Source: an uncultured Intrasporangiaceae bacterium (GTDB taxonomy: Bacteria > Actinomycetota > Actinomycetes > Actinomycetales > Dermatophilaceae). From it: a stretch of DNA of 28,467 nt. The translations under genes were made by a program, and so were the position numbers. Under the pieces are notes generated by a model. That model saw nothing but the letters and a program-made list of their open reading frames with translations. It did no database searches and had not been told where the DNA came from. The stretch is taken from assembly GCA_964573925.1 (NCBI GenBank), contig CAZNLX010000001.1, positions 1-28,467 on the forward strand, written 5' to 3'. Positions 473 through 28,386 of this stretch are shown piece by piece; position 1 is the first letter of the stretch, and every line of letters starts with the position of its first letter.

Positions 473-511
473 CGGGAGGGCGGCATACCCCAGGGGTATG
501 CCGCCCTCCCG
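473..511. terminator. Perfect inverted repeat, probable bidirectional terminator between convergent sigA and the transglutaminase gene
   Basis: CGGGAGGGCGGCATACCCC (473-491) is the exact reverse complement of GGGGTATGCCGCCCTCCCG (493-511). It lies 24 nt after the sigA stop and 3 nt before the opposing stop at 515. No U-tract, as is common in actinobacteria. Confidence 0.8.
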
Positions 512-514
512 CGC

Positions 515-2848
515 TCAGCGGCGTCGGCCCCACCACGCGCGGGGCCGCGCGCCGAGCCGACGTCCCAAGGCCCGCCACCAGCGACGGGCGTCGGTGGGCA
601 ACATCGTCGCCCGGATCCGGTGCTGCCAGGACCGGGTCCTCGCGACCTCGTGGAGCACCACCCGAGTGAGCGGTTCGAGGTGCGGGTCGACGAAGGCCCC
701 GGGCCGGGCGTAGCGAGCCCGTTCGACGGTGTCCACGACGGTCGCCAGCGACTGCGTCCCGGTTTCCCCGAGGAAGCCGGCGCGGGCGTAGTGAGCCTGG
801 GCATCGCGCAGCGTCCCCCCGGCAACGGGGGTGACGCCCAGATCGTCCAACCGGCCGGTGAAGGTCTGCCAGTGGGCCTCGGCGATCCGCGCCGGCGGGC
901 CAGGTCGGCCGGCCCGCACCCGGCGTAGCACCGCGGCGGTCACCGGCAGGACAAGGGCGGCCAGGACGACCAGCAGCACGACCAGTCCGAGCAGGTGCGG
1001 GACCTGCAGCACCCAACCGAGGACCCGGTCCAGCACCGGGACGTCGAGGGTGGTGGTCTGTTCGGACGGGGTCTCTCGGTCGGGGCGGTCCCGGTCCCGG
1101 CTGGCTGGGTCGTCGGTGAGCCGGGCCGTCGAGGTCGGCAGCGGTGCGGGGGTGATCGCCGGGAGCGTCCAGGCCGGTGCGTTTCCGGTGCGGACGCTGG
1201 GCGTCGGCTCGAAGCGCACCCAGCCGGCCCCCGGGAAGAACAGTTCGGGCCAGGCGTGGGCGTCGGCGCTGGTCACCGTCCACACGCCGTCCTGCTGGCT
1301 GCCGGGCAGGAAGCCGATAGCCACCCGGGCCGGGATTCCGGCGGCGCGCGCCATCATCGCCATCGTCGAGGCGAACTGGACGCAGTAGCCGCGCTTGGTC
1401 TGCAGGAAGGCGCTGATCGGGTCCGGCCGGGCGCCATTGGACGAGTCCGGCGTCGTCAACGTGAGCGAATAGGTGAACCCGCCCTTGCCGCGCAGCCAGT
1501 CCTGAATCGCCACCGCCTTGTCGTAGGGGGACTGCGACTGCGTGGTCACTGCGTTCGTCGCGTCGCGGATCGCGGCGGCGGACCGAGGATCGACCTCCAG
1601 CGCTGCGGTGATTGCCCGCCCGGTCGGCAGCCGGTCCGGCCCGGGTGAGCCGTCGACGCCGTTGCGCAAGAGGTCCGGGGTGTAGATCGGTTCGAGGTAG
1701 GTCGTTGAGTAGGAAGCGGGCCGGGCCTGCACGTAGACGTCCGAGGTCGACTCGTCCACTTGCCAACCGACCGCATTGAGGTCGGCCGTCGTGATCGGCT
1801 GCGGGGTGGCCAGCGCGGGCGGTTCGAGCGAGTTGTTCTCCACGACGATGGTCCGCTCCGAGCGGGCTACCTCGGGGGAGAGGTCCAGCCGGGCGCTGCG
1901 GCCCAGGGTCGGGTTCGGTCGGCTCCAGGACGTCCCGTCGTATGCCGTCGCCGCGAGGACTCGCAGCGGCGTCGGGCTGGGCGCCGTGCTGCGGTAGGTG
2001 AGAATCCGCCCGGAACCGCCGGCGTTGAGGCTGGTCCCGACGTCCAGGGTCGAGCTGAAGCCGACCTTGGCGTTGCCCCGTCCGTCGGCGCTGCGGGCCA
2101 GTCCGTCCAGCAGGTAGCGGGTCGGCAGATGGGGCAGCACGGCTGGGAGGGCAACCGCGGCGATGAGGCCCACGGCGCCCAGCCGGCGGGCCAGCCCGGC
2201 GAAGCGCAGTTCCGAGGTGGCTCGGGAGGCGCCGATCGCGATGGGTTCCATCGGGCGGACCGCCACCGAGGCCCACCGGCGCATGCCCTGTTGGGCATGC
2301 TGGGCCAGCAGCACCAGCCAGGCGAGGGCGGCGGCCAGGAAGTAGAAGGGGTGCAGGGCCGACCCGCTGTTCGCCGCGGCCGCCAAGAAGGCGGTGAGCA
2401 TCGGCAGACCGGCCGCCGCCGGGGCCCCTCGGGTGACGGCGAGGATGTCGACGAGCAGCACGACGGCCGTTCCGATCAAGGCGAGGGTGACCTCGACCCC
2501 GGTGTTGGCCGGCATCGGTGCCGAGGTGTTCACCGCGGTCGTGCCGAATTCGGCGAACAGGGCACCGAACCGGCGCACCGTGGCCAGAGTGGGCAGGCCG
2601 TACCAAGTGCTGGACCCGGCATACATCCAGACAACGGCGAGCAGGGTGACGACGATCTGGCTCGGCACGACGGCCACGGCGGACCGGGTCCAGAACCGGC
2701 GCACGAGGGCCCCGGCACCGACCGCGAGGACGACCAGCCAGATCGCCCGGGCGAACCAGGTCGTGGTGGCCACGAGGGTGGTCAGGCCGAGCAGCGAGGT
2801 GAGTCCGGCCACCGCAGCGAGGGCGGGGTGGGCTTCGCGGCGGTTCAT
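515..2848 (-). CDS. Membrane-anchored transglutaminase-like protein (TgpA/DUF3488-type), about 777 aa
   Basis: Multiple N-terminal hydrophobic helices, the transglutaminase core GYCVQFASTMAMMARAAGIPARVAIGF...DAHAWPELFFPGAGWVRFEPTP (Cys/His/acidic residue), then a C-terminal TM helix. ATG at 2848 overlaps the DUF58 stop (ATGA). The ORF-track extension to 3415 overlaps DUF58 and is not credible. Confidence 0.88.
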   Translation of the reverse strand: MNRREAHPALAAVAGLTSLLGLTTLVATTTWFARAIWLVVLAVGAGALVRRFWTRSAVAVVPSQIVVTLLAVVWMYAGSSTWYGLPTLATVRRFGALFAEFGTTAVNTSAPMPANTGVEVTLALIGTAVVLLVDILAVTRGAPAAAGLPMLTAFLAAAANSGSALHPFYFLAAALAWLVLLAQHAQQGMRRWASVAVRPMEPIAIGASRATSELRFAGLARRLGAVGLIAAVALPAVLPHLPTRYLLDGLARSADGRGNAKVGFSSTLDVGTSLNAGGSGRILTYRSTAPSPTPLRVLAATAYDGTSWSRPNPTLGRSARLDLSPEVARSERTIVVENNSLEPPALATPQPITTADLNAVGWQVDESTSDVYVQARPASYSTTYLEPIYTPDLLRNGVDGSPGPDRLPTGRAITAALEVDPRSAAAIRDATNAVTTQSQSPYDKAVAIQDWLRGKGGFTYSLTLTTPDSSNGARPDPISAFLQTKRGYCVQFASTMAMMARAAGIPARVAIGFLPGSQQDGVWTVTSADAHAWPELFFPGAGWVRFEPTPSVRTGNAPAWTLPAITPAPLPTSTARLTDDPASRDRDRPDRETPSEQTTTLDVPVLDRVLGWVLQVPHLLGLVVLLVVLAALVLPVTAAVLRRVRAGRPGPPARIAEAHWQTFTGRLDDLGVTPVAGGTLRDAQAHYARAGFLGETGTQSLATVVDTVERARYARPGAFVDPHLEPLTRVVLHEVARTRSWQHRIRATMLPTDARRWWRALGRRLGARPRAWWGRRR

Positions 2849-4188
2849 CGGATCACTCCGGCGCCGGCTCCCACACCGGCTCGCGCCGCGGCTGCCGTGC
2901 CGACCCGGCCCCAGGCCTGGGTCACCGTGTCGGCGGCGGTCACCGCGGTGGCCCGCCAGCCGGCACCGCGCAGAATGTCGACGGCTCGGGCCGCCCCAGC
3001 CCCTGGCCCGCTGGCTGCCGGGTCGCCCGGGTTGGCGGGCCATGGACCGGCGCCGCCGATGCCGCTGGCGCCGCCGCTGCCGCCGGCGAAGGAGGCCGGA
3101 TCCAGGACCAGCCCCACGGCGGTCGCGCCGCCATGACGCAGGGTCGCCACCGACCGTAGGGCGGCCTCGTCGGCCGCGGCCAGGATCGCGACGAGCAAGC
3201 CCCCGCCGGCCAGCAGGCCCTGACCTGACCGAGCCAGGCGAGCCAGGGACAGCGCGTCGTCGAGGGCGGTCACCGCCAGCACGTCCAGTGCGGTGGCCCG
3301 GTCCAGGGGAACCTCGTCGGGACCCTCCCGCACCGTCTCCGGGGTGAGCAGGTGAACGGCATAGCCGAGGGTCCCCAGGTGCACGACGGTCGAGGCCGCC
3401 GCGCTCACCGCCCACTCGAAGGAACTGGCCGGGCCGCTGCCGGCGTGCGCGGCGCTGCGCGGGTCGAGCAGAACCACCGCTCGGCGCCGGGCCGGTCGGT
3501 CCTCCTGACGGACCATGAGTTCACCGGTGCGAGCCGTGGCCGGCCAGTGGATCCGGCGCAGGTCGTCTCCGTCGCGGTACTCCCGGATCGACTGGTCGTC
3601 CTCGCCGTTGAGGGCCACCATGAACGGGATCTCACCTTCGGCGCCCACTCCGGTGCCCGGAGGCCTGGTGCCCCCCAGGGGGTGGACCCGAGGAAGCACG
3701 GTCACTTCGGACGCCGACCCGACCTCGACGAAACGCTGGGTCAACCCGAACGGGTCGCGCAACTGAACGGTGAGCGGACCGAGCAGGTGACGGCCGCGGA
3801 TCGGGGGGCGCACGGCATACGTGACGGCTCGACGCTCCCCGCGGCCGAGCGAGCCGAGCAACACTCGCGGGCGTTCGCCGATGACATAGTCCAAGCGCTC
3901 CTCGGCGAGCATGATCGGGGTCGAGTGCCGGCCACCGTTGGCGATCGTCGTGGTGACTGTCGTCGGGTCGCCGGCGCTCACCTGCGCCGGGTCGGTGGAA
4001 CGGGTGACGACCAGCCCCGGAGGCCGTCGACGGGCCAGCAGCAGGGCCAGCAGCGGCAGGGCCAGCAACAGCACGCCAACCCGGGTGATATCCCGGAAGC
4101 CCAGGAGGTAGCCGCAGACGAGCAGGGTCAGCCCGGCGGACCCGAAGGCCCGACCTCGGGTCGTGAGCACCTCACCGATGCCGCGCAC
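2845..4188 (-). CDS. DUF58 domain protein (MoxR-associated), 447 aa
   Basis: N-terminal TM segment, RGRHLLGPLTVQLRDPFGL, and the DUF58 signature SIREYRDGDDLRRIHWPATARTGELMVRQE. It sits between moxR and the transglutaminase gene, the usual triad. GTG start. Confidence 0.88.
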   Translation of the reverse strand: MRGIGEVLTTRGRAFGSAGLTLLVCGYLLGFRDITRVGVLLLALPLLALLLARRRPPGLVVTRSTDPAQVSAGDPTTVTTTIANGGRHSTPIMLAEERLDYVIGERPRVLLGSLGRGERRAVTYAVRPPIRGRHLLGPLTVQLRDPFGLTQRFVEVGSASEVTVLPRVHPLGGTRPPGTGVGAEGEIPFMVALNGEDDQSIREYRDGDDLRRIHWPATARTGELMVRQEDRPARRRAVVLLDPRSAAHAGSGPASSFEWAVSAAASTVVHLGTLGYAVHLLTPETVREGPDEVPLDRATALDVLAVTALDDALSLARLARSGQGLLAGGGLLVAILAAADEAALRSVATLRHGGATAVGLVLDPASFAGGSGGASGIGGAGPWPANPGDPAASGPGAGAARAVDILRGAGWRATAVTAADTVTQAWGRVGTAAAARAGVGAGAGVIR

Positions 4189-4222
4189 CAGCGACCGCCA
4201 TCCGTATGCCGCCCACCCCGGC

Positions 4223-5239
4223 TCAGCGCCGGCCGGCCGGGACGGGGGTGGACCGGAGAATCTCCAGCAGGACGTCCTCGGGCGTGCGGTGGGCCAGGGT
4301 GGCCTCGCCGGAGAGCATCAGCCGATGGCCCAGGACGGCCGGTGCCACTCGCTGGACATCGTCGGGCAGGACGTGGTCGCGAGCCTCGAGAGCGGCGTGG
4401 GCGCGGGCCGCCCGCAACACGTGCAGGGCAGCGCGGGGGGACGCCCCGAGCCGGACCGCCGGGCTGGTCCGGGTGGCGTTGGCCAGGTCGACGACGTACT
4501 GGCGCACCGCCGGTGCTGCGTAGACGTCCTGGGTGACCAGGACGAGCCGGGCCACCGTCTGTGCGTCGGTCACCGGCACGAGAACGTCCAACGGCGATCG
4601 CCCACCGTGCAGGTCGAGCATCTCGACCTCGGCCGCGGCCGACGGGTAGCCCATCGAGATCCGGGCCATGAACCGGTCCCGTTGGGCCTCGGGAAGCGGA
4701 TAGGTGCCCTCCATCTCGATCGGGTTCTGGGTCGCCATGACGATGAACGGCTTGTGCAGGGCATAGGTCGTGCCGTCGACGGTGACCTGGCCCTCCTCCA
4801 TGCACTCCAGCAGCGCAGACTGGGTCTTGGGGGAGGCCCGGTTGATCTCGTCGCCGACCACGACGTTCGCGAAGATCGCGCCGGGTCGGAACTCGAAGTC
4901 GCGCAGGTCTTGGTTGAAGACACTCACCCCGGTGATGTCGCTGGGCAACAGGTCGGGGGTGAACTGGATCCGGCGCACCGAGCAGTCGATGGAGCGCGCG
5001 AGGGCCTTGGCGAGCATCGTCTTGCCGACGCCGGGCACGTCCTCGACGAGCAGGTGACCACCGGCCAGCAGGACGGTGATCGCGGTTCGGACGACTCCCG
5101 GCTTGCCCTCGATGACCGACTCCATCGCGGCGGCGATCCGGGAGGCCACGGCCCGCAGTTCGGCCAGCGCCTCGGGCGTCGAACGCACGACCTCGCCGCT
5201 GGACACCGCCTGCTCGGGTCGGGGCCGGACGTCGCTCAC
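4223..5239 (-). CDS. moxR: MoxR-family AAA+ ATPase, about 338 aa
   Basis: Walker A region HLLVEDVPGVGKT, RIQFTPDLLPSDITG, Walker B VVVGDEINRASPKTQSALLE, ATQNPIEMEGTYPLPEAQRDRF. Start placed at GTG 5239, with GGAGG a few nt upstream. Confidence 0.92.
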   Translation of the reverse strand: MSDVRPRPEQAVSSGEVVRSTPEALAELRAVASRIAAAMESVIEGKPGVVRTAITVLLAGGHLLVEDVPGVGKTMLAKALARSIDCSVRRIQFTPDLLPSDITGVSVFNQDLRDFEFRPGAIFANVVVGDEINRASPKTQSALLECMEEGQVTVDGTTYALHKPFIVMATQNPIEMEGTYPLPEAQRDRFMARISMGYPSAAAEVEMLDLHGGRSPLDVLVPVTDAQTVARLVLVTQDVYAAPAVRQYVVDLANATRTSPAVRLGASPRAALHVLRAARAHAALEARDHVLPDDVQRVAPAVLGHRLMLSGEATLAHRTPEDVLLEILRSTPVPAGRR

Positions 5240-5245
5240 GGGATC

Positions 5246-5261
5246 CTCCACTTCGCTCCAC
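5246..5261 (-). promoter_or_regulatory. Pair of MraZ-type boxes overlapping the moxR ribosome-binding site
   Basis: Minus strand reads GTGGAG-CGAA-GTGGAG, with the same hexamer and 4-nt spacer as the boxes upstream of mraZ. Confidence 0.5.
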
Positions 5262-5370
5262 CGGGGACCCCTTGGCCCGCCCGGTCTGGTGAGCATATGT
5301 CGGCGCGCTGGTCCGGGCGGCCGAACCCGAGCACGAAGCCGGAAGCGGGGGCCGGTGCGCGCGGCATACC

Positions 5371-5386
5371 CTCCACTTCCCTCCAC
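5371..5386 (-). promoter_or_regulatory. Pair of MraZ-type boxes facing moxR
   Basis: Minus strand GTGGAGGGAAGTGGAG is identical over 16 nt to plus strand 5446-5461. Confidence 0.6.
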
Positions 5387-5438
5387 GGCTGTGACCTGCC
5401 ACTTTGCCGTTCGGAATGGAAGTTTGAGAAAGAATCTG

Positions 5439-5491
5439 GCGACAGGTGGAGGGAAGTGGAGTATGGTGGGGCGCCAAGGAGCGTGGTGGCG
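5439..5491 (+). promoter_or_regulatory. mraZ/dcw promoter with 10-bp-phased MraZ-binding repeats
   Basis: GTGGAG (5446), GTGGAG (5456), GTGGGG (5466), degenerate AAGGAG (5476), GTGGCG (5486). Candidate -35 GCGACA (5439-5444), 17-nt spacer, -10 TATGGT (5462-5467) embedded in the repeats, consistent with known MraZ autorepression. Confidence 0.75.
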
Positions 5492-5559
5492 GGTATGCCG
5501 CCCCGCCGGGTCGCGTGGGACGGCCCCCTCGGGGGTCGGGAGGGAAGGGGTGGTGCGTC

Positions 5560-6024
5560 GTGGTCGACGACCAGTTCGCCGCCCTGCCGGTCCCCTTCCT
5601 GGGCACCCACACCCCCAAACTCGACGACAAGGGGCGGCTGATCCTGCCGGCCAAGTTCCGAGAGCAACTGGCCACCGGACTGGTCATGGCCAAGGGCCAG
5701 GAGCGCTGCATCGTCGTCTACCCGATGGCTGAGTTCTATCGATTCGCCGCGCAGATGCAGTCCGCGCCGAGTTCGGTCGCCGGGGTGCGCGACTACACCC
5801 GGGTGCTGGCCTCCAGCGCCTCCCCGGAGGTTCCCGACCGACAAGGGCGGATCACCATCCCCGCGATGTTGCGCGATTACGCCGGCCTGGACCGGGACCT
5901 GGCGGTCATCGGCAACATCAGCCGGGTCGAGATCTGGGACCTGCCCGCCTGGAACGCCTACCTCGCTGAGAAGGAGCCCGGCTTCGCCGCTCAGAGCGAG
6001 GAGGTGATGCCCGGGAGGTTCTGA
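5560..6024 (+). CDS. mraZ: Division/cell wall cluster transcriptional repressor MraZ
   Basis: [23 protein letters not shown] and [10 protein letters not shown] (two AbrB-like repeats), [11 protein letters not shown]. First gene of dcw. The start at GTG 5560 after a purine-rich tract is uncertain. Confidence 0.95.
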
Positions 6025-6036
6025 CCGCTGACGCCA

Positions 6037-6142: not shown

Positions 6143-6267
6143 GCCGTATCGGCCCAGTCCGCGCTCGCCGCCACCCGTCCAGGCCCATCGCTCGTCCAGC
6201 CTCACGGCCCGCACCGACCCCGACGCACCGATCCGCGAACCATCAGATCCACGAACCGGAGCCCCCG

Positions 6268-7257
6268 ATGACCGCCACCCCCGAGCTCGCGCCGCACCAG
6301 CGGCACGTGCCCGTGCTGCGCGAGCGGGTCGTCGAGGTGCTCGGTCCGGCCCTGGCCGCCGACGGCGCGGTCTACGTCGACGGCACCCTCGGCATGGGCG
6401 GCCACGCCGAGAGCGTCCTGCAGGCCTACCCGCGGGCCCGGCTCGTCGGGATCGACCGCGACCCGCAGGCCCTCGAACTGGCCGGGCGCCGGCTGCTGCC
6501 CTTTGCGGACCGGATCACTCTTGTCCACGCCGTCTACGACGAGTTCGCCCAGGTCATTCGCGACCTGGGCATCCCGACCGTCGATGCGGCCCTCTTCGAC
6601 CTCGGGGTCAGCTCACTGCACCTGGACGAGGCCGACCGGGGATTCGCCTACCGAGTCGACGCGCCGCTGGACATGCGGATGGACCAGACCCGGGGTCTCA
6701 CCGCCGCGGACGTCCTCAACACCTACGAGCCCGACCAGTTGGTCCGGATCCTGCGCGACTTCGGCGAGGAGCGCTTCGCTCGGCCGATCGTGCGCGCCGT
6801 GGTCGCTGAGCGCGGCCGGGCTCCGTTCACGTCGTCCGGCCGTCTCGTCGAGTTGCTCCGGAGGGTCGTCCCGGCCGCCTCGCAGCGCAGTGGGGGACAC
6901 CCCGCCAAGCGAACCTTCCAGGCCCTGCGGATCGAGGTCAACGGCGAGTTGGATGCCTGGCGCCGGGCCCTGCCTGCCGCGATCGACCGGCTGAGGGTGG
7001 GCGGCCGAGTGGCCGTGCTGTCCTACCACTCGCTCGAGGACCGGATCACCAAGCAGACCCTCGCCGCCGGGGCCACCTCGCGCACCCCCGCCGGTATGCC
7101 GGTCGAGCGGCCGCAGGACGCGGCATACCTGCGCCCCGTGACCCGCGGAGCCGAGGTGCCCACCGAGGCGGAGATCGCGGCCAACCCGCGCGCCGCGTCG
7201 GCCCGACTGCGAGTGGCGGAGCGAATCCGAGTGACCGACCAGGGGGAGTCACAATGA
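6268..7257 (+). CDS. rsmH: 16S rRNA m4C1402 methyltransferase RsmH (MraW)
   Basis: [77 protein letters not shown]. Confidence 0.97.
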
Positions 7258-7835
7258 GCCAGGCTGCACTACGTCACTGGGCCGCCGCGACGACCGCGCC
7301 TGGTCTGGCCCGCCCCACCACGGCGGCGGCCCGGCTGCGGGTCGTTCCGGCGGCGATCGAGCGAACCGGAACGGGCAAGTTCGCCGCGATGTGCATGGCC
7401 CTGCTCACCCTGGGCCTGCTCACCCTGCTCATGCTCAACGCCCAACTCGCCCAGGGCTCGTTCACCCTGCACGACCTGCAGACCACGTCCGGCACGCTCT
7501 CCGATCAGGAACACGAGCTGACCCGGGCGCTGGATGCCGAACGCAACCCCGGGGCGCTGGCCCGCCGGGCCCTGGGTATGGGGATGGTCCCGGCGACCTC
7601 GATGGCCTTCATCCGGCTCGATGACGGAACCATCCTCGGGGTCGCCGAACCGGCCGTGGCCAAGACCCTCAACGTCGTGTCGATCCCCAAGCCGCCGTCC
7701 ACGCCCTCGGTCGCGGCCCCGACGCCGGTGGTCCCCAGCGCGCCTGCCGCAACGGCCACTCCCGGGCCGGCCGACGCTGCCGCAGCCGACCCCGAGTCGC
7801 CCGGCGCGGCCCCGACGACGACTCCGGGGGGCTGA
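7254..7835 (+). CDS. ftsL: Probable cell division protein FtsL with Pro/Ala-rich C-terminal tail
   Basis: Lies between rsmH and ftsI. One TM helix ([18 protein letters not shown]), then a coiled coil and [17 protein letters not shown] overlap with rsmH. Confidence 0.78.
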
Positions 7836-7839
7836 TCGA

Positions 7840-9973: not shown

Positions 9974-11563
9974 GTGCGTTCACCCCGGCCGAGTTCGGTC
10001 CCGCCGGTCCCGCTGCAGGTCCTGGCAGCTCGGTCCGGGGCGACCCTGCTCGCCGACGACCCGGCCGGGCACCTCGCCGTCACCGGGGTGAGCCTGGACT
10101 CCCGGACGGTCACCTCCGGCGACCTGTATGCCGCCCTCCCGGGCGCCCGCGCGCACGGTGCCTCCTTCGTCCCGGCCGCCCGGGCTGCCGGCGCGGTTGC
10201 CGTGCTCACCGATCCGGCCGGTGCCGAGACGATCCGCGCCACGACCGCAGGGGCGGACGGCATACCCGTGCTGGTGCACCCGCACCCGCGGGCCGTGCTC
10301 GGCGACCTGGCCGCCCAGATCTACGGTCGCCCGGCCGATCGGCTGCGCGTGGTCGGGATCACCGGCACCAACGGCAAGACGACGACCGCCTACCTCGTCG
10401 AGTCGGCGCTGCGCGCCTTGGGTCGGCGCACCGGGTTGATCGGGACGGTGGAGACCCGGATCGGCGACGAGCGGTTGGCCTCGGTGCGCACCACCCCGGA
10501 GGCGACCGACCTGCACGCCATCCTCGCGGTGATGGCCGAACGCGGCATCGACAGCGTCGTCATGGAGGTGTCCAGCCATGCGCTGGCCCAGCATCGGGTC
10601 GACGGGGTGACCTACGAGGTGGCCCTGTTCACCAACCTGTCCCAGGACCATCTCGACTTCCACTCGACGATGACGGACTACTTCGAGGCCAAGGCGGCCC
10701 TGTTCGCGCCCGCCCGGGCCCGTCATGGCGTGGTCTGCGTGGACGACGACTGGGGTCGCGAGCTCGCGGCGCGACGCGGCATACCGCTGGTCACGGTGGC
10801 GTCCGAGGGGGCGGGGGACTGGACCCTGCACCACGGCGAAGGCCCCGACCTCGTCGTCGCCGGCCCGGACGGCGAACACCTGCACCTCACCTGCCACCTG
10901 CCCGGCACCTTCAACCGGGTCAACACGGCGATGGCCGCCGTCGCCCTGCGACGGCTCGGGTATGCCGCGGCCGACGTCGAACGCGCCATGGCCGCCGAGC
11001 CGGTCGTCCCCGGCCGGATGGAGATCGTGCCCGGCGGGCCGGACGACCCCCGGTGCATCGTCGACTTCGCGCACACTCCGGAAGCGGTCGACGCTGCCCT
11101 CGCCGCGCTGCGTCCCACCACCGTGGGCCTGCTCGTCGCCGTCATCGGCGCGGGCGGTGACCGGGACCGGGGCAAGCGCCGGGGGATGGGCGCCGCCGCG
11201 GCCCGATGGGCCGACGTCGTCTACGTCACCGACGACAACCCCCGCTCCGAGGACCCAGCGGTGATCCGTGAGCAGGTCCTGGCCGGTGCCCGCGAGGCAC
11301 TCGCCGCCGCAGGTGAGGACCCGACGGCGGACCCGGGCGGGGGTCGGCCCCGCGCGCTCACCTCCGACGAAGGCCGCGCCGCTCACATCGCCGCGGCGGT
11401 GGCGGCGGCCCGCCAGGTGCCTGGCTCAACCGTCGCTGTCCTCGGCAAGGGTCACGAGACGGGTCAGGACATCGGTGGCGTCGTCCACCCCTTCGATGAC
11501 CGGGTGGCCCTGGCTGCGGCCCTGCGCGTCCCGGCCGACCCCCGACCCGAGGCCCCGCGATGA
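9974..11563 (+). CDS. murE: UDP-N-acetylmuramoyl-L-alanyl-D-glutamate--2,6-diaminopimelate ligase
   Basis: VSLDSR, GITGTNGKTTT, RTTPE, MEVSSHAL, FTNLSQDHLDFH, PGRME, VDFAHTP, GAGGDRDRGKR, DDNPRSED, GKGHETGQ. Confidence 0.96.
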   Translation: MRSPRPSSVPPVPLQVLAARSGATLLADDPAGHLAVTGVSLDSRTVTSGDLYAALPGARAHGASFVPAARAAGAVAVLTDPAGAETIRATTAGADGIPVLVHPHPRAVLGDLAAQIYGRPADRLRVVGITGTNGKTTTAYLVESALRALGRRTGLIGTVETRIGDERLASVRTTPEATDLHAILAVMAERGIDSVVMEVSSHALAQHRVDGVTYEVALFTNLSQDHLDFHSTMTDYFEAKAALFAPARARHGVVCVDDDWGRELAARRGIPLVTVASEGAGDWTLHHGEGPDLVVAGPDGEHLHLTCHLPGTFNRVNTAMAAVALRRLGYAAADVERAMAAEPVVPGRMEIVPGGPDDPRCIVDFAHTPEAVDAALAALRPTTVGLLVAVIGAGGDRDRGKRRGMGAAAARWADVVYVTDDNPRSEDPAVIREQVLAGAREALAAAGEDPTADPGGGRPRALTSDEGRAAHIAAAVAAARQVPGSTVAVLGKGHETGQDIGGVVHPFDDRVALAAALRVPADPRPEAPR

Positions 11564-18102: not shown

Positions 18103-19604
18103 CGCTCCCGCGGACCCGGTTCGACTACACCGCGGCCCCGCGGCCGGTCGCCGAGCTCGGCGCGGTCCACCTCGTGGGTATCGGTGGTGCGGGGATGTCC
18201 GGGATCGCCCGGATGCTGCATGCTCGCGGCATACCGGTCACCGGTTCGGACGGTCGCGACTCGGCGACCCTGGCTGCGCTGCGGGACGAGGGCATCGACG
18301 TCCGGGTCGGGCACGACGCTGCGGCGATCGCGGGGGTCGACACGCTGGTCATCTCCTCGGCGATCCGCGAAGACAACCCCGAGGTGACCGCGGCGCGCGC
18401 GGCCGGCCGCCCCGTGCTGCACCGTTCCCAAGCCCTGGCCGCTCTGGCGCAGGGGTCCGCCCGACGGATCGCGGTCGCGGGCGCCAACGGCAAAACGACG
18501 ACCTCCTCGATGCTCGCTGTCGTGCTCACCCTCGCCGGGCGGGATCCCTCCTATGCGGTGGGTGGGGACCCGGTTCAGCTGGCGGCCAACGCCCGGCTGG
18601 GTTGCGGCCAGGTGTTCGTCATCGAGGCCGATGAGAGCGACGGCTCGTTCGTCGGCTACCGCCCGCAGGTTGCCCTGGTGACCAGTGTCCAGCCCGATCA
18701 CCTCGACTTCTGGGGAACCGAGCAAGGGGTGGCCGAGGGCTATCGCGCCTTCGTCGACTCGATCACGCCGGGGGGAGTGCTGGTCGCCTGCTTCGACGAT
18801 CCAGGGGCTCGAGAGTTGGCCGGGTATGCCGCGAGCCGAGGCGTCCAGGTCGTCGGCTACGGGGAGTCCGCCGATGCCGAAGTGCGCCTAGCGGACCTGC
18901 GGCCGGCCGGGCTGGGAGCCCGCGCGGGAGTCTTCGTGGACGGCGCGGCATACGAGCTGGAGTTGGTCGTGCCGGGCGAGCACAACCTGCTCAACGCCGC
19001 GGGAGTGCTGGCCATCGCCCTGTACGGACTGTCCTCGGCCGGGGCCTCGGGTGCGGACCGAACCCCGGAGGCCGTGCGGACCTGGCTCGACCTCTTGTCG
19101 AGGTTTAGGGGCGTGCGTCGCCGGTTCGAGCGGGTCGGTGAGGTCGGCGGGGTGACCGTCGTCGACGACTACGCGCACAACCCGGCAAAGGTCCGAGCCG
19201 CGGTGGCGACCGGGCGCGCCGCCGTCGGACCAGCGGGACGGCTCGTCGTCCTCTTCCAGCCGCACCTCTACTCGCGGACCCGGGATTTCGCCGCCGACTT
19301 TGGTGCCGCCCTTGCCTCGGCCGACGTCGTGCTCGTCGCCGACGTGTATGCCGCCCGCGAGGACCCCTTGCCCGGGGTGACCGGGGCACTGGTCGCCGAC
19401 GCCGTGCGGGCGACCGGCTCACTGGCCAAGGTCGAGTTCGTTGCGGGCGCCGACCGGGTCCTTCCGGCGCTGCGCGCCGCCGTCCGGTCCGGCGATGTGG
19501 TGCTCACCGTGGGGGCAGGCGACGTGACCACCGTCGGACCGGCGCTACTGGCCGCCCTGGCCGCCGACGGCGCTGCTGCCGACCGCCGGACGGGCCAGGG
19601 ATGA
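18099..19604 (+). CDS. murC: UDP-N-acetylmuramate--L-alanine ligase
   Basis: HLVGIGGAGMSGIA, GANGKTTTSSM, EADESDGSF, DHLD, GVRRRFE, DDYAHNP, FQPHLYSRT, GAGDV. ATGA overlap with murG. Confidence 0.96.
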   Translation: MTLPRTRFDYTAAPRPVAELGAVHLVGIGGAGMSGIARMLHARGIPVTGSDGRDSATLAALRDEGIDVRVGHDAAAIAGVDTLVISSAIREDNPEVTAARAAGRPVLHRSQALAALAQGSARRIAVAGANGKTTTSSMLAVVLTLAGRDPSYAVGGDPVQLAANARLGCGQVFVIEADESDGSFVGYRPQVALVTSVQPDHLDFWGTEQGVAEGYRAFVDSITPGGVLVACFDDPGARELAGYAASRGVQVVGYGESADAEVRLADLRPAGLGARAGVFVDGAAYELELVVPGEHNLLNAAGVLAIALYGLSSAGASGADRTPEAVRTWLDLLSRFRGVRRRFERVGEVGGVTVVDDYAHNPAKVRAAVATGRAAVGPAGRLVVLFQPHLYSRTRDFAADFGAALASADVVLVADVYAAREDPLPGVTGALVADAVRATGSLAKVEFVAGADRVLPALRAAVRSGDVVLTVGAGDVTTVGPALLAALAADGAAADRRTGQG

Positions 19605-21887: not shown

Positions 21888-21895
21888 GTGAGCCG

Positions 21896-22693
21896 ATGTT
21901 CTTCTGGCGTGGGCGCTACGGCACCGTCGAGCTGGCCGTCACCGGTCGGCGCGGCGGCGCGAGTGCTGCCCCGTTCGACGGACTCAACCTCGCCCGCCAC
22001 GTCGGCGATGACCCCCGAGACGTCATGGCCAACCGGGCCGTGCTGGCCGCGCAGCTGCAGCTCCCACCCGAGCGGCTGGTCTTCATGAACCAGTGCCACG
22101 GGGCGGTGGTGCAGGTCGTCGACGGCCCCTGGCCGGCCGAACCGCCAGAGTGCGACGCCGTGGTGACCGCCTCGACCGAGCTCGCGCTGGTGGCCCTCGT
22201 CGCCGACTGCGTCCCGGTCTTGCTGGCCGACCACGATGCCGGGGTCATCGCCGCGGTGCACGCCGGCCGGCCGGGGTTGATGGCCGGGGTGGTGACGGCC
22301 GCATTGGACGCCATGGGCGACCTGGGCGCGCGTGCCCCGCGTGCGGTCGTTGGCCCTTCGATCTGCGGCCGCTGCTACGAGGTTCCGGAGGCGATGCGCC
22401 GGGACGTGGCCCGGATCGTTCCCGAGAGCGCGACGGTCTCCTGGGCCGGCACCCCGGCGGTCGATGTCGCCGCAGGGGTCGTCGCCCAGTTGGCTCGACG
22501 GTCCGTGCCGGTCTCCTGGGTGCCCGGGTGCACCCGCGAGGACGAGCGTCTCTACTCCTACCGGCGCGCGCAGCGGACCGGGCGGTTCGCCGGCGTGGTG
22601 CTGCGCCGAGGCGAACCAAGCCCGGATGGCGATGCCGGCCGGGCGGCATACCCGCAGCTGTGGACCGTCCCGAGCGGGCCGGAGGAACCATGA
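21896..22693 (+). CDS. pgeF: Peptidoglycan editing factor PgeF (YfiH/laccase-like family)
   Basis: LNLARHVGDD, MNQCHG, DAVVT, LVADCVPVLL, AVHAGRPG, GPSICGRCYEV, CTRED..LYSYRR. Canonical position after ftsZ. Confidence 0.92.
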   Translation: MFFWRGRYGTVELAVTGRRGGASAAPFDGLNLARHVGDDPRDVMANRAVLAAQLQLPPERLVFMNQCHGAVVQVVDGPWPAEPPECDAVVTASTELALVALVADCVPVLLADHDAGVIAAVHAGRPGLMAGVVTAALDAMGDLGARAPRAVVGPSICGRCYEVPEAMRRDVARIVPESATVSWAGTPAVDVAAGVVAQLARRSVPVSWVPGCTREDERLYSYRRAQRTGRFAGVVLRRGEPSPDGDAGRAAYPQLWTVPSGPEEP

Positions 22694-23436: not shown

Positions 23437-23439
23437 CGT
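23434..23439 (+). promoter_or_regulatory. Candidate -10 element (TAACGT) for sepF, overlapping the yggS TAA stop
   Basis: TANNNT hexamer, identical to the one upstream of divIVA. It is the only TAA stop among the called genes. Confidence 0.45.
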
Positions 23440-23519
23440 CGAGCCCAGACCCGTATGCCGTGGCGTTGCCCGGGCAGGCAGGTCGAGATGGCACCGACGG
23501 ACATAAAGGGGATGGGCCC

Positions 23520-23981: not shown

Positions 23982-24044
23982 TCCCCGACGGTTCGTCAGG
24001 TCGCGGGGCTGGCCTGGCGACCGGTGATCGGAGACGATAGGTCG

Positions 24045-24326: not shown

Positions 24327-24406
24327 CACAATGACGCGCAGGGCGCAGGCGACGCCCGGACGACCGGGGGCGACGGAGTCGGTTGGGTCGACAGGACTCG
24401 ATTAGG

Positions 24407-24412
24407 TAACGT
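24407..24412 (+). promoter_or_regulatory. Candidate -10 element (TAACGT) for divIVA
   Basis: TANNNT in an AT-richer patch 36 nt upstream of the ATG, followed by a GAGGTGA RBS. Confidence 0.45.
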
Positions 24413-24448
24413 TGGCTCGCCACTATCTACTGTCAGTCGAGGTGACCC

Positions 24449-25717
24449 ATGGCGCTCACGCCCGAACAAGTGCTCAACAAGCACTTCCAGACGACCCAAT
24501 TCCGCAAGGGGTACGACGAGCGCGACGTCGATGACTTCCTCGACGAGATCGTCGCTGAGATGCGGTCGTTGCTGGCCCAGCGCGACGACTACAAGCAGCA
24601 GCTCGCCGATTGCCGGGCCGGTCGGGGGATGTCCGACGCCCCGACGATGGCGGTGGCCTCCCCCGTCGACACCCGTGCCGCGGAGGAGCTGGAAGCCCGG
24701 CTCGCCGACGCCCAGGCTCAGCTGAGCCAGGCTCATGCCGAGCACGCCCGGGTCACCGAGTCGATCAACGGCGCCCGCGCCGAGTTCGACAGCCTGCAGG
24801 GCCGCCTCGACAGTCTGCGCGGCTCGCTGGTCGACGCTCAGGCCCAGGCGGACGGCGCCCCGCGCATGGTCCAAGACGCTGAGGCTGCGGTGGCCGATGC
24901 CCAGCGTCGGGCCGAGGAGTTCTCCTCGCGTGCCGCCGAGGCGGAGAAGCACCTCTACGAGGTCGAGTCGCGGGTGGCTGAGGCCGAGGCCAAGGTCCAG
25001 GAGGCCGCAGCCCGGGTCCATGACGCGGATCAGCGCGCTGCCGAGGCGCACGCCCGCGCCGAGCAGGCCGAGGCGGCGGCTCTGGCCGCGGCCCAGCGCG
25101 AGCAGGCCTCACTTGCCCAGGCTGCCGCTCAGCCCGAGGCGGCCGCTCCGGTCGCGGCGTTCGCGGGTGGGGCGATGGGTGGCACGGCAAGCGCCGCCGG
25201 CCTCATCGAGCTGGCCCAGCGCCTGCACGACGAGCACGTCGCCCAAGGCGAGGCCAAACGCCACGAGTTGATCAACGCGGCTGAGGCTCGCCACCACGAG
25301 TTGCTCTCGACCGGCCAGGCCCGTTTCGACGAACTGGTCGGTAGTGGTCAGCGCCAGCACGACGAGTTGCTCTTCACGGCCCAGAGCCGTCACGACGAGT
25401 TGCTCGGCACGGCCCAGCACCGTCACGACGAGCTGGTCGGCGCGGCCCAGCGCCAGCACGACGAGATGCTCGCCGAGGCTGCCAACCTCAAGGAGCAGAT
25501 GCTCACCGAGGCCCGCGAACGCTCCACCGGGATGGTCGCCGAGGCTCAGCAGAAGAAGGCCGCCGTGCTCGAGGAACTCGAGGGCCAGCGCACCGTCATT
25601 GAGCGCAAGATCGAGGACCTGCGGTCCTTCGAGCGCACCTACCGTTCGCAGCTGCGGTCCTACTTCGAGGACAAGCTCGCCGAGCTCGCCGGCACCGGGG
25701 CGGACGCCTCGGCCTGA
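24449..25717 (+). CDS. divIVA: Polar growth protein DivIVA/Wag31, long form (422 aa)
   Basis: MALTPEQVLNKHFQTTQFRKGYDERDVDDFLDEI N-terminal domain, long coiled coils and C-terminal IEDLRSFERTYRSQLRSYFE. Confidence 0.95.
   Translation: MALTPEQVLNKHFQTTQFRKGYDERDVDDFLDEIVAEMRSLLAQRDDYKQQLADCRAGRGMSDAPTMAVASPVDTRAAEELEARLADAQAQLSQAHAEHARVTESINGARAEFDSLQGRLDSLRGSLVDAQAQADGAPRMVQDAEAAVADAQRRAEEFSSRAAEAEKHLYEVESRVAEAEAKVQEAAARVHDADQRAAEAHARAEQAEAAALAAAQREQASLAQAAAQPEAAAPVAAFAGGAMGGTASAAGLIELAQRLHDEHVAQGEAKRHELINAAEARHHELLSTGQARFDELVGSGQRQHDELLFTAQSRHDELLGTAQHRHDELVGAAQRQHDEMLAEAANLKEQMLTEARERSTGMVAEAQQKKAAVLEELEGQRTVIERKIEDLRSFERTYRSQLRSYFEDKLAELAGTGADASA
25226..25555 (+). repeat. Ten in-frame 33-nt (11-aa) degenerate tandem units within divIVA
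   Basis: HDEHVAQGEAK / RHELINAAEAR / HHELLSTGQAR / FDELVGSGQRQ / HDELLFTAQSR / HDELLGTAQHR / HDELVGAAQRQ / HDEMLAEAANL / KEQMLTEARER / STGMVAEAQQK. Confidence 0.85.
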
Positions 25718-25957
25718 TCCGGTGACCCGCCGGCGCGACCCTCACGGTCGGCGTATGCCGCCGAGCGCCGCGCGACGTGGGGCCTGGACTTCGGTCCGGG
25801 CCCCACGTCTGTTTCGTGTCCTTGATCACCATCGAGTAACGGCGCGGCGCGTTGTTCGCCCGCATGACTCCCACGATGCGCTTTCGTGGCTTATCCTCGG
25901 GCGCGATCGCCCCTCATTCGAACGGGCGACCGAGACCCGGAAGGGATCCGAGCGGCC

Positions 25958-26734
25958 ATGGCTGCGACGAAGGGCACATCCGCCGCCCCGGTGGCCAAGG
26001 CCGTGACGAAGGCGGCGTCCTCGGCCCGGAAGGCGGCCGCGCTCGCCCCGGCGAAGAAGACCACGGCGCCCGCCGCCACGTCGGCACGGGCGACGCCTGC
26101 GCCTGCCAAGACGGCCAAGGCGGCGACGAAGGCCACGGCGGTGCCGGCGAAGAAGGTGGCGACGAAGGCCGCTCCCGTGCCGGCCAAACCGGCCAAGAAG
26201 GTGGCTACGAAGGCCGCTCCTGCGCCGGCCAAGCCGGCCAAGAAGGCGGCGACCAAGGCCGCTCCCGTACCGGCCAAGCCGGCCAAGAAGGCGGCGACCA
26301 AGGCCGCGCCGGCGCCGGCCAAGCTGGTCGCGGTCGACGACAGCCCACTGCCGGTCCGCGCCGACGAGGAACCGTGGACCGAGGCCGAGCTCAAGGAGAT
26401 CCGGCGCGAGATCGAGCGTGACATCGCCCGTGGGCTCGCGGACATCGCCACGGCGGAGGAGGACCTGCAGGGCCTCATCTGGGACGCCGGTGACGGCTCC
26501 GGCGACGATCAGGCCGACGCCGGTGCCAAGACCTACGAGCGCGAGCAGGAGATCTCGCTGGCCAACATCTCCCGGGACAAGCTCGCGCAGAACCGCCACG
26601 CCCTGGAGCGGCTCGACAACGGCAGCTACGGGGTGTGTGAGTCCTGCGGCGAGCCGATCGGCAAGTTTCGACTCCAGGCCGCCCCGCGTGCGACCCTATG
26701 CAGGTCATGCAAGGAGAAATCAGAACGCGGGTGA
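25958..26734 (+). CDS. Histone-H1-like N-terminus fused to a DksA/TraR C4 zinc-finger domain (DdbA-like), about 258 aa
   Basis: Ala/Lys/Pro-rich N-terminal half, coiled-coil tip DDQADAG (DxxD) and zinc finger CESC...CRSC. Located before lspA, like Streptomyces ddbA. Confidence 0.88.
   Translation: MAATKGTSAAPVAKAVTKAASSARKAAALAPAKKTTAPAATSARATPAPAKTAKAATKATAVPAKKVATKAAPVPAKPAKKVATKAAPAPAKPAKKAATKAAPVPAKPAKKAATKAAPAPAKLVAVDDSPLPVRADEEPWTEAELKEIRREIERDIARGLADIATAEEDLQGLIWDAGDGSGDDQADAGAKTYEREQEISLANISRDKLAQNRHALERLDNGSYGVCESCGEPIGKFRLQAAPRATLCRSCKEKSERG
26144..26323 (+). repeat. Four tandem 45-nt (15-aa) PAKK units
   Basis: PAKKVATKAAPVPAK / PAKKVATKAAPAPAK / PAKKAATKAAPVPAK / PAKKAATKAAPAPAK. 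Confidence 0.92.
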
Positions 26735-27348
26735 CCTCGCCCGCCCCCCAGCCCGGCGCGCCCGGGCGGTCCCGTCGGTTGACCGTCCTCTTCGTCGTCG
26801 TGGCCGTCGTCGTGTATGCCGCCGACCAGGCCAGCAAGCTGTGGGCCGTCGCTGCCCTGACCGACGCGCAGGCCCATGAACTCATCGGGACCTTCCTGAG
26901 GTTGTACCTCGTGCGCAACCCGGGGGCTGCCTTCTCGATGGGCACCGGCAGCACCTGGGTGCTCACCCTGCTGGCGGTCGCCGTCCTCGTCGTCCTGGTC
27001 CGCAGCAGTCGCAAACTCGGCAGCACCGCCTGGGCCTGGGCGTTCGGCCTCATCCTCGGCGGCGCACTCGGCAACCTCACCGATCGGCTCACCCGTTCAC
27101 CCGGATTCGGCCGCGGGCACGTCGTGGACTTCATCGACTACAACGGGTGGTTCGTCGGCAACGTCGCAGACATCGCCATCGTCGCGGCGGCGATGCTCAT
27201 CGGTCTGCTCGCCCTGCGCGGCATCGGCCTGGATGGGACCCGGGAGGGGATGGCAGCTCCCGGTCGCTCGCAGCCGGCCGCCAGCGGCACCGAGCCGGAC
27301 CGCGAAGCCGGGGCGGACGGCATACCGGACTCCGGGCGCGATGGGTGA
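26731..27348 (+). CDS. lspA: Lipoprotein signal peptidase II
   Basis: [42 protein letters not shown] overlap with the upstream gene. Confidence 0.95.
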
Positions 27349-28282
27349 CCCGCGGACCGTGCTCGTCCCGGAGGGGCTGCACGGGGAGCGGGTCGACGCG
27401 GCAATTTCGCGATTGTTCGGCCTGTCGCGCACTCGAGCCGCCGAGTTGGCCGCCGACGGCAAGGTGACCCTCAACGAGAGGGTGAGCACAAAGTCGGCGA
27501 GGGTCGGGGCCGGGGACCTGCTCGAGGTCGTCCTGCCCGTCTCGGATCCCAGCCCCTCGATCGAGGTGATCGCCGAGCCGGTGCCCGGGATGACGATCGT
27601 GCACGACGACGACGACCTCGTCGTCGTCGACAAGCCCGTCGGCGTGGCCGCGCACCCGAGCGTCGGCTGGACCGGCCCGAACGTCGTCGCCGGGCTCGCC
27701 GCGGCCGGCTACCGAATCGCCACCTCCGGAGCCAGCGAACGCCAGGGCATCGTCAGCCGCCTCGATGTCGGGACTTCGGGACTCATGGTCGTGGCCAAGA
27801 GCGAATACGCCTACAGCCGGCTCAAGCAGGCGTTCCGCTCGCGGCAGGTGGACAAGACCTACCACGCCCTCGTCCAGGGCCTGCCCGACCCGATGGTCGG
27901 GACGATCGACGCCCCGATCGGGCGGCATCCGGCCCACGAGTTCAAGTTCGCGGTGATGGCCTCGGGCAAGCCGGCGGTGACCCACTACGAGGTCGTCGAG
28001 GCGTTCCACGGTGTCGCGAGCGCCGCCCTGCTCGAGATCAAGCTCGAGACCGGGCGGACCCACCAGATCCGCGTGCACCTGGCCGCGCTGCGCCACCCCT
28101 GCTGCGGTGACCCGCTCTACGGTGCCGACCCGCGACTGGCGGCCCGGCTCGGCCTGGAGCGGCAGTGGCTGCACGCCGTCGGGCTCGGTTTCGAACACCC
28201 GGGGACCGGCGAGTGGGTGAGCTTCGCCAGCCCCTACCCGGCCGATCTCGAGCACGCGCTGGACGTCCTGGCCGCAGGCTGA
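27341..28282 (+). CDS. RluA/RluD-family 23S rRNA pseudouridine synthase with S4 domain
   Basis: [16 protein letters not shown] (S4), [24 protein letters not shown] (catalytic Asp), [21 protein letters not shown]. 8-nt overlap with lspA. Confidence 0.94.
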
Positions 28283-28380
28283 GACGGGTGCGGTCCGCCT
28301 GCCGGACCGGTCGTGCGGCGGATGAGCCGGACCCGCCCGACACGGCTGGCGACACGCGCGGGGGCGTCGGCGGGGCGGCA

Positions 28381-28386
28381 TACAGT
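28381..28386 (+). promoter_or_regulatory. Candidate -10 element (TACAGT) for a leaderless dnaE transcript
   Basis: TANNNT 7 nt before ATG 28394, no SD. It overlaps the octamer CGGCATAC at 28376-28383. Confidence 0.5.

Follow-up and report, generated by a model that had tools for sequence, protein, structure and literature searches.

A hyper-abundant, non-palindromic octamer with one-base dialects in Dermatophilaceae: a candidate self-DNA recognition word

The locus analysed here is a stretch of 28,467 nucleotides (the window) from an uncultured Intrasporangiaceae bacterium (family Dermatophilaceae; NCBI GenBank assembly GCA_964573925.1, contig CAZNLX010000001.1, positions 1 to 28,467 of the forward strand), and it raises the question of why one short word, the octamer GTATGCCG, recurs throughout it on both strands. 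Exact counting gave 29 copies, spanning positions 481-28383, with 14 on the plus strand and 15 on the minus strand. The G+C content of the window was 71.6% and the zero-order expectation from base composition was 0.96 copies; 100 dinucleotide-preserving shuffles of the window contained 0.45 copies on average (maximum 3), and the enrichment was 30- to 60-fold over chance. All 24 one-mismatch variants were scarce (0-5 copies each). The reverse complement of the word is CGGCATAC, i.e. the word is non-palindromic. The next base on its 3' side was C in 22 copies, T in 5 and G in 2, and 29 of the 44 TATG/CATA tetramers of the window (66%) lay within copies of the octamer. When 269 distinct copies from motif-rich relatives were pooled, G was found at position -1 in 60% and C or T at position +9 in 88%; since no conservation was seen beyond these two positions, GTATGCCG is not part of a longer repeat. 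Weakly extended in this way to (G)GTATGCCG(C/T), the octamer is a genomic word peculiar to the family Dermatophilaceae (Intrasporangiaceae sensu lato).

Gene limits were taken from public assemblies of this organism (MoxR 4223-5239 on the minus strand, MraZ 5560-6024 on the plus strand); by these, eight copies were intergenic and 21 coding (72% in genes), and with a non-coding share of the window estimated at approximately 7-8%, intergenic DNA was enriched about 3- to 4-fold. The coding copies occupied four reading frames, namely x-TAT-GCC-G (Tyr-Ala, eight copies), GGC-ATA-CC (Gly-Ile-Pro, six), GCA-TAC (Ala-Tyr, five) and GGT-ATG-CCG (Gly-Met-Pro, two). The third-position G+C content of this genome is approximately 88%, and the four frames take its rarest codons (ATA, TAT, GCA and GGT): ATA was used for 6 of the 295 Ile codons of the window genes, every one of them inside GTATGCCG, and 10 of the 26 TAT codons were likewise part of a copy. 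Synonymous-codon shuffles that kept both the proteins and the codon usage predicted 1.3-1.9 coding copies (maximum 7), against the 23 seen with the first gene model, which was the one used for this test (21 with the public-assembly limits). Of the peptide sites in the window that are compatible with the motif, 21/38 (55%) were occupied by it. Ten coding copies were sense and 11 antisense to the mRNA, and the signal is therefore not read on RNA. The original prediction, made from the letters of the window, had counted 29 copies (14 plus, 15 minus) at about 72% GC, had expected about one copy and set the enrichment at roughly 30-fold, and had reported two thirds of the TATG/CATA tetramers inside the motif, the same next-base tally, eight intergenic and 21 coding copies, and four reading frames (now 8 + 6 + 5 + 2 copies); all of these figures were reproduced on recounting, and the enrichment survived the codon-aware null model against which that prediction had asked it to be judged.

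Pfam matches identified the window as a division and cell wall (dcw) cluster; the bacterium, an uncultured member of the Dermatophilaceae, is close to Candidatus Phosphoribacter. For comparison with relatives, one genome per species was scanned with MurG, which yielded 80 dcw loci, titled mostly as Dermatophilaceae genera or metagenome-assembled genomes (MAGs), with a few 'Mycobacteriales' MAGs and many uncultured Actinomycetota. The family-wide figures rest on approximately 20 kb per genome from this same dcw region; genes in the related loci were called with a crude codon-usage caller, and the tree was a quick neighbour-joining tree of five dcw proteins. The nearest relatives of the window were Ca. 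Phosphoribacter hodrii (L062) and MAG_MBR_AS.62 (L007), at 77-78% MurG identity.

At conserved peptides, motif-rich taxa carried GGT-ATG-CCG in murG, GGC-ATA-CC in murD, CTG-TAT-GCC-G in murE and GTG-TAT-GCC-G in murC, and motif-poor taxa used GGC, ATC and TAC at the equivalent positions. In the window these are the conserved Gly-Met-Pro of murG (17489-17496, plus strand, GGT ATG CCG; mostly GGC in motif-poor taxa), the murD copy at 14470-14477 (minus, CGC GGC ATA CCG; motif in 28 of 77 related loci, GGC ATC CC in motif-poor taxa), the murE copy at 10126-10133 (plus, CTG TAT GCC GCC, Leu-Tyr-Ala-Ala; motif in 31 of 68 related loci, CTC/CTG TAC GCC in motif-poor taxa) and the conserved Val-Tyr-Ala-Ala of murC (19346-19353, plus, GTG TAT GCC GCC; GTC TAC GCC in motif-poor taxa). 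At variable positions the protein itself was altered to give the motif: Glu-Val-Ala-Arg and similar peptides of the relatives became Gly-Tyr-Ala-Ala in murC (18824-18831, plus, GGG TAT GCC GCG; a lineage-specific copy, 0/80 related loci), and Leu-Phe-Ala-Ala of most relatives became Met/Leu-Tyr-Ala-Ala in ftsW (16302-16309, plus, ATG TAT GCC GCG in the window). A further murE copy (10960-10967, plus, GGG TAT GCC GCG) stands where relatives have other residues, e.g. Gly-Leu-Glu-Pro. Two Gly-Ile-Pro copies were also lineage-specific: 10258-10265 in murE (minus, GAC GGC ATA CCC, with the rare codon ATA; 0/46 related loci) and 18227-18234 in murC (minus, CGC GGC ATA CCG; 0/80). Some motif sites were thus common to 30-40% of the related loci and others unique to the window lineage, which shows both retention and turnover.

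Retention was measured on codons at conserved residues between the window and L062: of the A/T-ending codons, 20% were identical outside the motif but 13/14 (93%) inside it, and of the G/C-ending codons, 65% outside and 93% inside. Eight other motif-rich taxa gave the same pattern. The excess of GTATGCCG acts at the DNA level: neither codon usage, nor peptides, nor a repeat element, nor a peculiarity of the window accounts for it. The word prevails over codon bias and has brought about amino-acid replacements. As a separate observation, the ratios of one-mismatch words between motif-rich and motif-poor taxa mirrored conversions into the motif (e.g. GTACGCCG was depleted), a pattern that does not separate uptake from a repair drive.

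The word extends well beyond the window. In the same genome, the adjoining 4.2 kb on the right-hand side (dnaE region) held seven copies and the 9.5 kb on the left ten, making 46 copies in 42 kb, or approximately one per kb. Metagenomes were scanned with the pattern GTATGCCG, 0-30 bases, CGGCATAC, and 120 loci were returned, from which 24 contigs (with no assigned taxonomy) were picked for the highest density of additional motifs together with a G+C content of 67-73%. These contained 212 copies (99 plus, 113 minus) in 180.5 kb, equal to 0.91 extra copies per kb once the ascertained pairs had been removed. Approximately 78 of the other loci held nothing beyond the ascertained pair, and the rest mostly had one or two extra copies, at chance-like densities of at most 0.4 per kb. 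The motif-rich contigs encode DnaA, RecF, RNase E, ComM-DprA-XerC-RpsB-Tsf, aldehyde dehydrogenase, phenol hydroxylase, amylase and others; the motif is therefore spread around the chromosome. Strands were balanced in every contig, including one with dnaA (14/15, 8/9, 9/9, 12/12 and so on). One motif-rich contig (L173) carries a yraN-comM-dprA-xerC block at 595-3263, i.e. recombination-side transformation genes, themselves widespread, are present in at least one motif-bearing organism. Apart from these, an unrelated contig of 31% G+C (L199) held 11 copies of the octamer within positions 1-400 as clustered (A/G)CGGCATACCATAA repeats in two near-identical blocks, which resemble the iteron-type protein-binding repeats of an AT-rich replicon.

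Density varied strongly among the related loci. It was 0.8-1.14 copies per kb in the clade of the window (L007, L010, L018, L038, L040, L062 and L082), 0.5-0.85 in Phycicoccus (Tetrasphaera) elongatus, Nostocoides (Tetrasphaera) jenkinsii, Knoellia and two other lineages, 0.2-0.47 in Terrabacter, Humibacillus and Lapillicoccus, approximately 0.05 in Austwickia and Intrasporangium flavum, and 0-0.06 in Janibacter, Mobilicoccus, Arsenicicoccus piscis, Phycicoccus sp. HDW14 and the 'Mycobacteriales' MAG outgroups. The occupancy of compatible peptide sites, which is independent of composition, was 44-80% in the motif-rich relatives compared, then 21-32%, and 0% in the outgroups. The enrichment could have been confined to the window, as the original prediction allowed; the density of about one copy per kb elsewhere in the genome and of 0.91 per kb in the 24 contigs disposes of this, and the survey of related genomes that it had urged gave, over the 80 loci, densities from 0 in outgroups to approximately 1.1 per kb.

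In some lineages the word differed by one base. Three dialects were found, with T, A or G at position 2, and the variant words reached approximately 0.6-1.3 copies per kb in their own lineages. The A-dialect locus (L051, 'Phycicoccus sp.' bin 253) contained 13 copies of GAATGCCG, all 13 followed by C or T, and only two of GTATGCCG, with an occupancy of 12/19 (63%). The G dialect was seen in Ornithinibacter (L067; 19 copies of GGATGCCG in 14.4 kb, occupancy 40%) and in its sister L058 (20 copies in 21 kb, occupancy 36%). The latter is the weaker case, for GGGTGCCG occurred 15 times in the same locus and the word is less sharp there than in L067 or L051. The occupancy of GGATGCCG in other loci was 2-15%, and that of all dialect words outside their own lineages 0-15%. 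Two murG sites show the exchange directly: the copy at 17361-17368 of the window (minus, CGC GGC ATA CCG) reads GGC-ATA-CC, where L051 has GGC-ATT-CC and L067 GGC-ATC-CC, and the Gly-Met-Pro site reads GGT-ATG-CCG in the window, GGA-ATG-CCG in L051 and GGG-ATG-CCG in both L067 and L058. In the neighbour-joining tree the A-dialect lineage was sister to the T-dialect P. elongatus. That sister lineages differ in a single base of the word points to a protein with changed specificity and not to a general mutational bias.

Other high-count octamers of the related loci (AAGAAGGC, CGGCCAAG and GGTGATCA) were considered as dialects and rejected as protein repeats, codon words or isolated unverified counts; in L042, L043, L084 and others, AAGAAGGC/GCCTTCTT and CGGCCAAG, at 15-26 copies per locus, represent Lys/Ala-rich protein repeats. 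One metagenome contig, L002, links an fhaA-fhaB-pstP-rodA region (within 1-4661) with the dcw cluster, the junction falling inside ftsW/rodA, and resembles an assembly chimera of paralogous genes of the SEDS (shape, elongation, division and sporulation) family, perhaps from two organisms. Its positions 1-3650 (FHA/PP2C genes) held no GTATGCCG copy and, being probably chimeric, were not taken as evidence.

Two inverted copies of the word (481-488, minus; 496-503, plus) form a hairpin at 473-511 of the window, a perfect 18-bp stem with a 3-nt loop (CGGGAGGGCGGCATACCC-cag-GGGTATGCCGCCCTCCCG) placed between the convergent stops of a sigma-70 gene (ends 448) and tgpA (ends 515); the fold of 455-530 was calculated at -59.5 kcal/mol (z = -7.4). 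The ascertained pairs of the motif-rich metagenome contigs likewise form the base of long, mostly perfect stems, whose inner parts all differ. As GTATGCCG alone is conserved among the hairpins, they do not represent a dispersed mobile element. Of 25 inverted pairs in these contigs, about 15 lay within 70 nt past a stop codon and six lay inside genes. The hairpins at terminator positions may end transcription. U-tracts are missing from them, which is not unusual in high-GC actinobacteria.

Phage DNA gave a different picture from that of the hosts. The lytic Tetrasphaera phage TJE1 (NC_019930) had two copies in 49.2 kb against approximately 1.9 expected from composition and was thus not enriched, whereas the dcw locus of its host, N. 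jenkinsii, had 0.76 copies per kb; the G+C content was 57.7% in the phage versus 67% in that locus. It follows from the phage that replication and expression in these hosts do not depend on the word, which is a property of long-resident chromosomal DNA. TJE1 also has three annotated methyltransferase genes (orf2, orf12 and orf62). A scan of IMG/VR for inverted pairs gave no flanking enrichment among the matches listed (at least 120 loci) and no extra copies in 75 kb above 66% G+C, a result that leaves room for phages carrying the motif.

The spacing of neighbouring copies fitted the exponential expectation, with no clustering, in the 42 kb of the window genome and in 296 kb pooled from 14 motif-rich related loci and the window. 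A spacing of 122-132 nt shared by four inverted pairs of the window was put down to chance on this pooled result, in which the 120-140 nt bin consisted mostly of one orthologous murG pair. Among neighbouring copies more than 60 nt apart, opposite orientations outnumbered like ones, at 18 versus 8 in the window and 87 versus 63 in the metagenome contigs (105 versus 71 in sum); each set was marginal alone (p = 0.06 and 0.08).

What could maintain such a word? We consider it possible, though rather short of probable, that GTATGCCG is a self-DNA recognition word for natural transformation. The word would be recognised as double-stranded DNA by a sequence-specific protein, most likely part of the DNA-uptake machinery of natural transformation, and would have the role that the DNA uptake sequence (DUS) plays in Neisseriaceae and the uptake signal sequence (USS) in Pasteurellaceae. 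DNA of their own kind that bears the word would be imported by competent cells, homologous recombination would then spread the word-bearing fragments, and over time the word would come to fill every genomic place that tolerates it. We propose that a protein reads GTATGCCG, that it may act in DNA uptake and that these bacteria may be naturally competent; the hairpin pairs, the dialects of sister lineages and the unenriched phage favour the analogy with uptake sequences. The wider claim, more tentative again, is that Dermatophilaceae, including wastewater polyphosphate accumulators, may be naturally transformable, and that GTATGCCG(Y), together with the A and G dialects, would form the first uptake-sequence system known outside Proteobacteria, with a receptor that would have co-evolved with the dialect. 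Natural transformation is established in the same order, in Micrococcus luteus (PMC8467076).

Several points weigh on the other side. No report of uptake or transformation for any member of the family was found in the literature searched. We know of no uptake sequence in any Gram-positive bacterium, and Gram-positives are without the outer membrane, where selection for DUS and USS acts. The exponential spacing offers no structural periodicity either way, and the ComM and DprA genes on the motif-rich contig L173 are too widespread to count as evidence. Every feature found also fits a sequence-specific repair or modification enzyme. Strong conservation of single sites is expected as well from direct selection on a binding site, as has been argued for the cyanobacterial word HIP1 (PMC5861425).

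The comparison with known systems is closest for DUS: both are short non-palindromic words at approximately one per kb, equally frequent on the two strands, present in coding and intergenic DNA with an intergenic excess, paired in inverted orientation as hairpins at the 3' ends of genes, and accompanied by variants one or two bases apart in related genera. The 12-mer AT-DUS is ATGCCGTCTGAA, with which GTATGCCG shares only the hexamer ATGCCG, taken as coincidence. Unlike DUS, the present word belongs to a different phylum of Gram-positive bacteria without an outer membrane, its core has 8-9 bases instead of 10-12, and the CTG core of all DUS dialects is missing. Dialects of DUS in Neisseriaceae were described by Frye et al. 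(2013), as cited in PMC13020248. With USS the octamer has in common a density of approximately one per kb, a preference for tolerant reading frames with effects on peptides, and a presence in terminators; Findlay and Redfield are said to have reported in 2009 that USS lie in tolerant reading frames and affect the encoded peptides. The consensus of USS is AAGTGCGGT (PMC7811141, PMC13020248), to which GTATGCCG has no similarity, and USS have AT-rich flanking segments where the flanks of GTATGCCG are nearly information-free. A minor pilin has been predicted as the USS receptor (PMC12616744). The receptor of DUS is the minor pilin ComP, and the receptor and uptake bias of USS have been shown or predicted by experiment. 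The word is neither DUS nor USS by sequence; as far as can be read from the DNA, it would work like one.

HIP1 (GCGATCGC) is a hyper-abundant octamer of cyanobacteria, over-represented 15- to 300-fold (PMC5861425; bioRxiv 10.64898/2026.06.24.733823). The enrichment of GTATGCCG falls within that range, and the two words share conservation at orthologous sites, for HIP1 both within and between genes, and related variants in some lineages. They differ in that HIP1 is a palindrome and a known methylation target with a periodicity of 10-90 kb; GTATGCCG is non-palindromic, and the longest contiguous stretch of DNA analysed here is 42 kb. The role of HIP1 was long a puzzle; according to a proposal in the 2026 preprint, it may likewise serve to recognise DNA for uptake (bioRxiv 10.64898/2026.06.24.733823). 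The original prediction had placed the octamer among genome-wide DNA-level signals of the DUS, USS or HIP1 kind in an actinobacterium, and this part of it stood; its alternative of a recombination signal did not stand for the strand-polar type, the strands being balanced in every contig. A methyltransferase target and a site for a nucleoid protein, the two further mechanisms that it had offered, are weighed below.

In a 2026 survey of terminator motifs in thousands of genomes, uptake sequences were found only in Neisseriaceae and Pasteurellaceae, where they were also frequent in terminators (PMC13020248). No description of GTATGCCG was found in the 8 million open papers and preprints searched, in line with the original prediction, which knew of none; the bare-octamer search was swamped by the Illumina adapter TCGTATGCCGTCTTCTGCTTG, and a whole-word search of the literature returned only an unrelated variable-number tandem repeat (VNTR) unit of Ralstonia. 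What is new is that a genomic word of such abundance, restricted to one lineage and split into three dialects, occurs in a phylum not previously represented.

Among other explanations, the one that survives best is a sequence-specific modification or repair drive, the older reading of HIP1, in which a methyltransferase reads the word, or a nuclease of the very-short-patch (VSP) kind corrects near-matches towards it, and no uptake takes place. We regard it as unlikely, while taking it seriously. The hyper-abundance, the sharpness, the one-base dialects and the spread through coding DNA would all be expected of an enzyme with changeable specificity, and the TJE1 result is neutral here, since a lytic phage is exposed to host repair only briefly in evolutionary terms. 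The pairing of the word in terminator hairpins is, however, left without a reason. A contiguous, non-palindromic site of 8-9 bp would also be long for known methyltransferases (Type IIG/III sites), and VSP-type repair shifts word frequencies only modestly in E. coli, both of which count against this drive. On the other hand, two methylases, DmtA and DmtC, are known to recognise HIP1 (bioRxiv 10.64898/2026.06.24.733823).

Direct selection at each site for binding by an abundant protein that is nucleoid-associated or organises the chromosome is less likely still. It would suit the presence of the motif around the whole chromosome, the dnaA region included, and the conservation of synonymous positions in the motif between genera, which is far above background and for which the same argument has been made with HIP1 (PMC5861425). 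The random spacing without clusters and the many lineage-specific sites that turn over do not suit it, and an essential architectural role is hard to square with a density that varies five-fold among healthy sister genera and is zero in others.

Selection of the word at the level of the terminator or the RNA, as the base of a hairpin or as a signal read on the transcript, is very improbable. It would account for the pairs found just past stop codons (about 15 of 25) and for the window pair between convergent genes, but approximately three quarters of the copies are single and within genes, and with sense and antisense copies in near-equal number (10 versus 11) an RNA-level role leaves most of them unexplained; the hairpins fit better with a side effect or a secondary use of the word, like those of Neisseria. 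Even less credit can be given to a strand-polar signal for recombination or segregation, such as Chi (RecBCD/AddAB), or the FtsK-orienting polar sequences (KOPS) and SpoIIIE recognition sequences (SRS) read by FtsK/SpoIIIE: these are, like GTATGCCG, over-represented words of the eight-base class, and theirs are recognised by proteins, but they are strongly co-oriented with replication, unlike the present word, and the balance of every contig at the 10-30 kb scale excludes a polar signal of this type. Finally, a by-product of codon usage, of common peptides or of a dispersed repeat is next to inconceivable: many GC-rich octamers of the window are indeed frequent for codon reasons (e.g. CGACGACG), but fewer than two copies are expected after synonymous shuffling, the motif takes the rarest codons, relatives have the same peptides without the word, and a repetitive extragenic palindromic (REP) element or miniature inverted-repeat transposable element (MITE), sought as a conserved element of at least 20 nt and mostly intergenic, was rejected on the unconserved flanks, the 72% of copies in genes and the differing inner stems.

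The remaining copies of the window are distributed over a gene content that was arranged as follows. On the left, the end of the sigma-70 gene (plus strand) is followed by tgpA, a DUF58 gene and moxR on the minus strand; from mraZ onwards the plus strand carries mraZ, rsmH, a small ftsL-like gene, ftsI, murE, murF, mraY, murD, ftsW, murG and murC, and then ftsQ, ftsZ, yfiH, ylmE, sepF, yggT, divIVA, a DksA-type zinc-finger gene, lspA and rluD. Several metagenome assemblies and the NCBI MAG GCA_029552025.1 contain this DNA at 99.96-100% identity. In tgpA, one copy is antisense (1940-1947, plus, ACG GCA TAC, Thr-Ala-Tyr) and one sense (2617-2624, minus, ATG TAT GCC GGG, Met-Tyr-Ala-Gly, with the rare codon TAT); the DUF58 gene has a sense copy at 3813-3820 (minus, ACG TAT GCC GTG). 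An inverted pair 27 nt apart lies in rsmH (7094-7128; GGT ATG CCG at 7094 on the plus strand and GCG GCA TAC at 7121 on the minus strand) and is kept in L007, L040 and L062. Further minus-strand copies are found in murE (10777-10784, CGC GGC ATA CCG), murF (12896-12903, GCG GCA TAC), murC (18946-18953, GCG GCA TAC) and yfiH, of the Cu-oxidase_4 family (22644-22651, GCG GCA TAC), and lspA has one copy on each strand (26814-26821, plus, GTG TAT GCC GCC; 27318-27325, minus, GAC GGC ATA CCG).

Intergenic copies outside the hairpin lie between moxR (ends 4223) and the DUF58 gene (starts 4188) at 4204-4211 (plus), in the divergent moxR/mraZ promoter region (5240-5559) at 5362-5369 (minus) and 5493-5500 (plus), between ylmE (ends 23436) and sepF (starts 23520) at 23453-23460 (plus), 36 nt past the divIVA stop (25717) at 25753-25760 (plus), and 94 nt past the rluD stop (28282), upstream of dnaE, at 28376-28383 (minus). 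Three observations concern the genes themselves. A 193-aa open reading frame at 7254-7835, between rsmH and ftsI, has no Pfam match and is ftsL-like by its position in actinobacterial dcw clusters. The long divIVA gene (422 aa) contains tandem 33-nt / 99-nt repeats at 25292-25472, probably coiled-coil and heptad-like. Within the DksA-type zinc-finger gene, four tandem 45-nt units (26143-26324, 88% matches) encode an Ala/Lys/Pro-rich, PAKKAATKAAPA-like repeat.

The motif explains the odd usage of the codons ATA and TAT in these genomes, and the density of the motif or of its dialects could serve as a taxonomic mark for the binning of metagenome contigs and could flag foreign DNA in these genomes. 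Self-DNA words of such strength are known from three bacterial groups only (Neisseriaceae, Pasteurellaceae and cyanobacteria), and a Gram-positive case would widen the phenomenon. With three dialects at hand, lineages can be compared directly in the search for the putative reader protein. The family includes the dominant polyphosphate accumulators of wastewater, Ca. Phosphoribacter and Tetrasphaera-like lineages. If GTATGCCG is a self-DNA recognition word for transformation, natural competence would be predicted in a family without genetic tools, including organisms central to biological phosphorus removal, and the word placed on donor DNA could open these bacteria to genetics.

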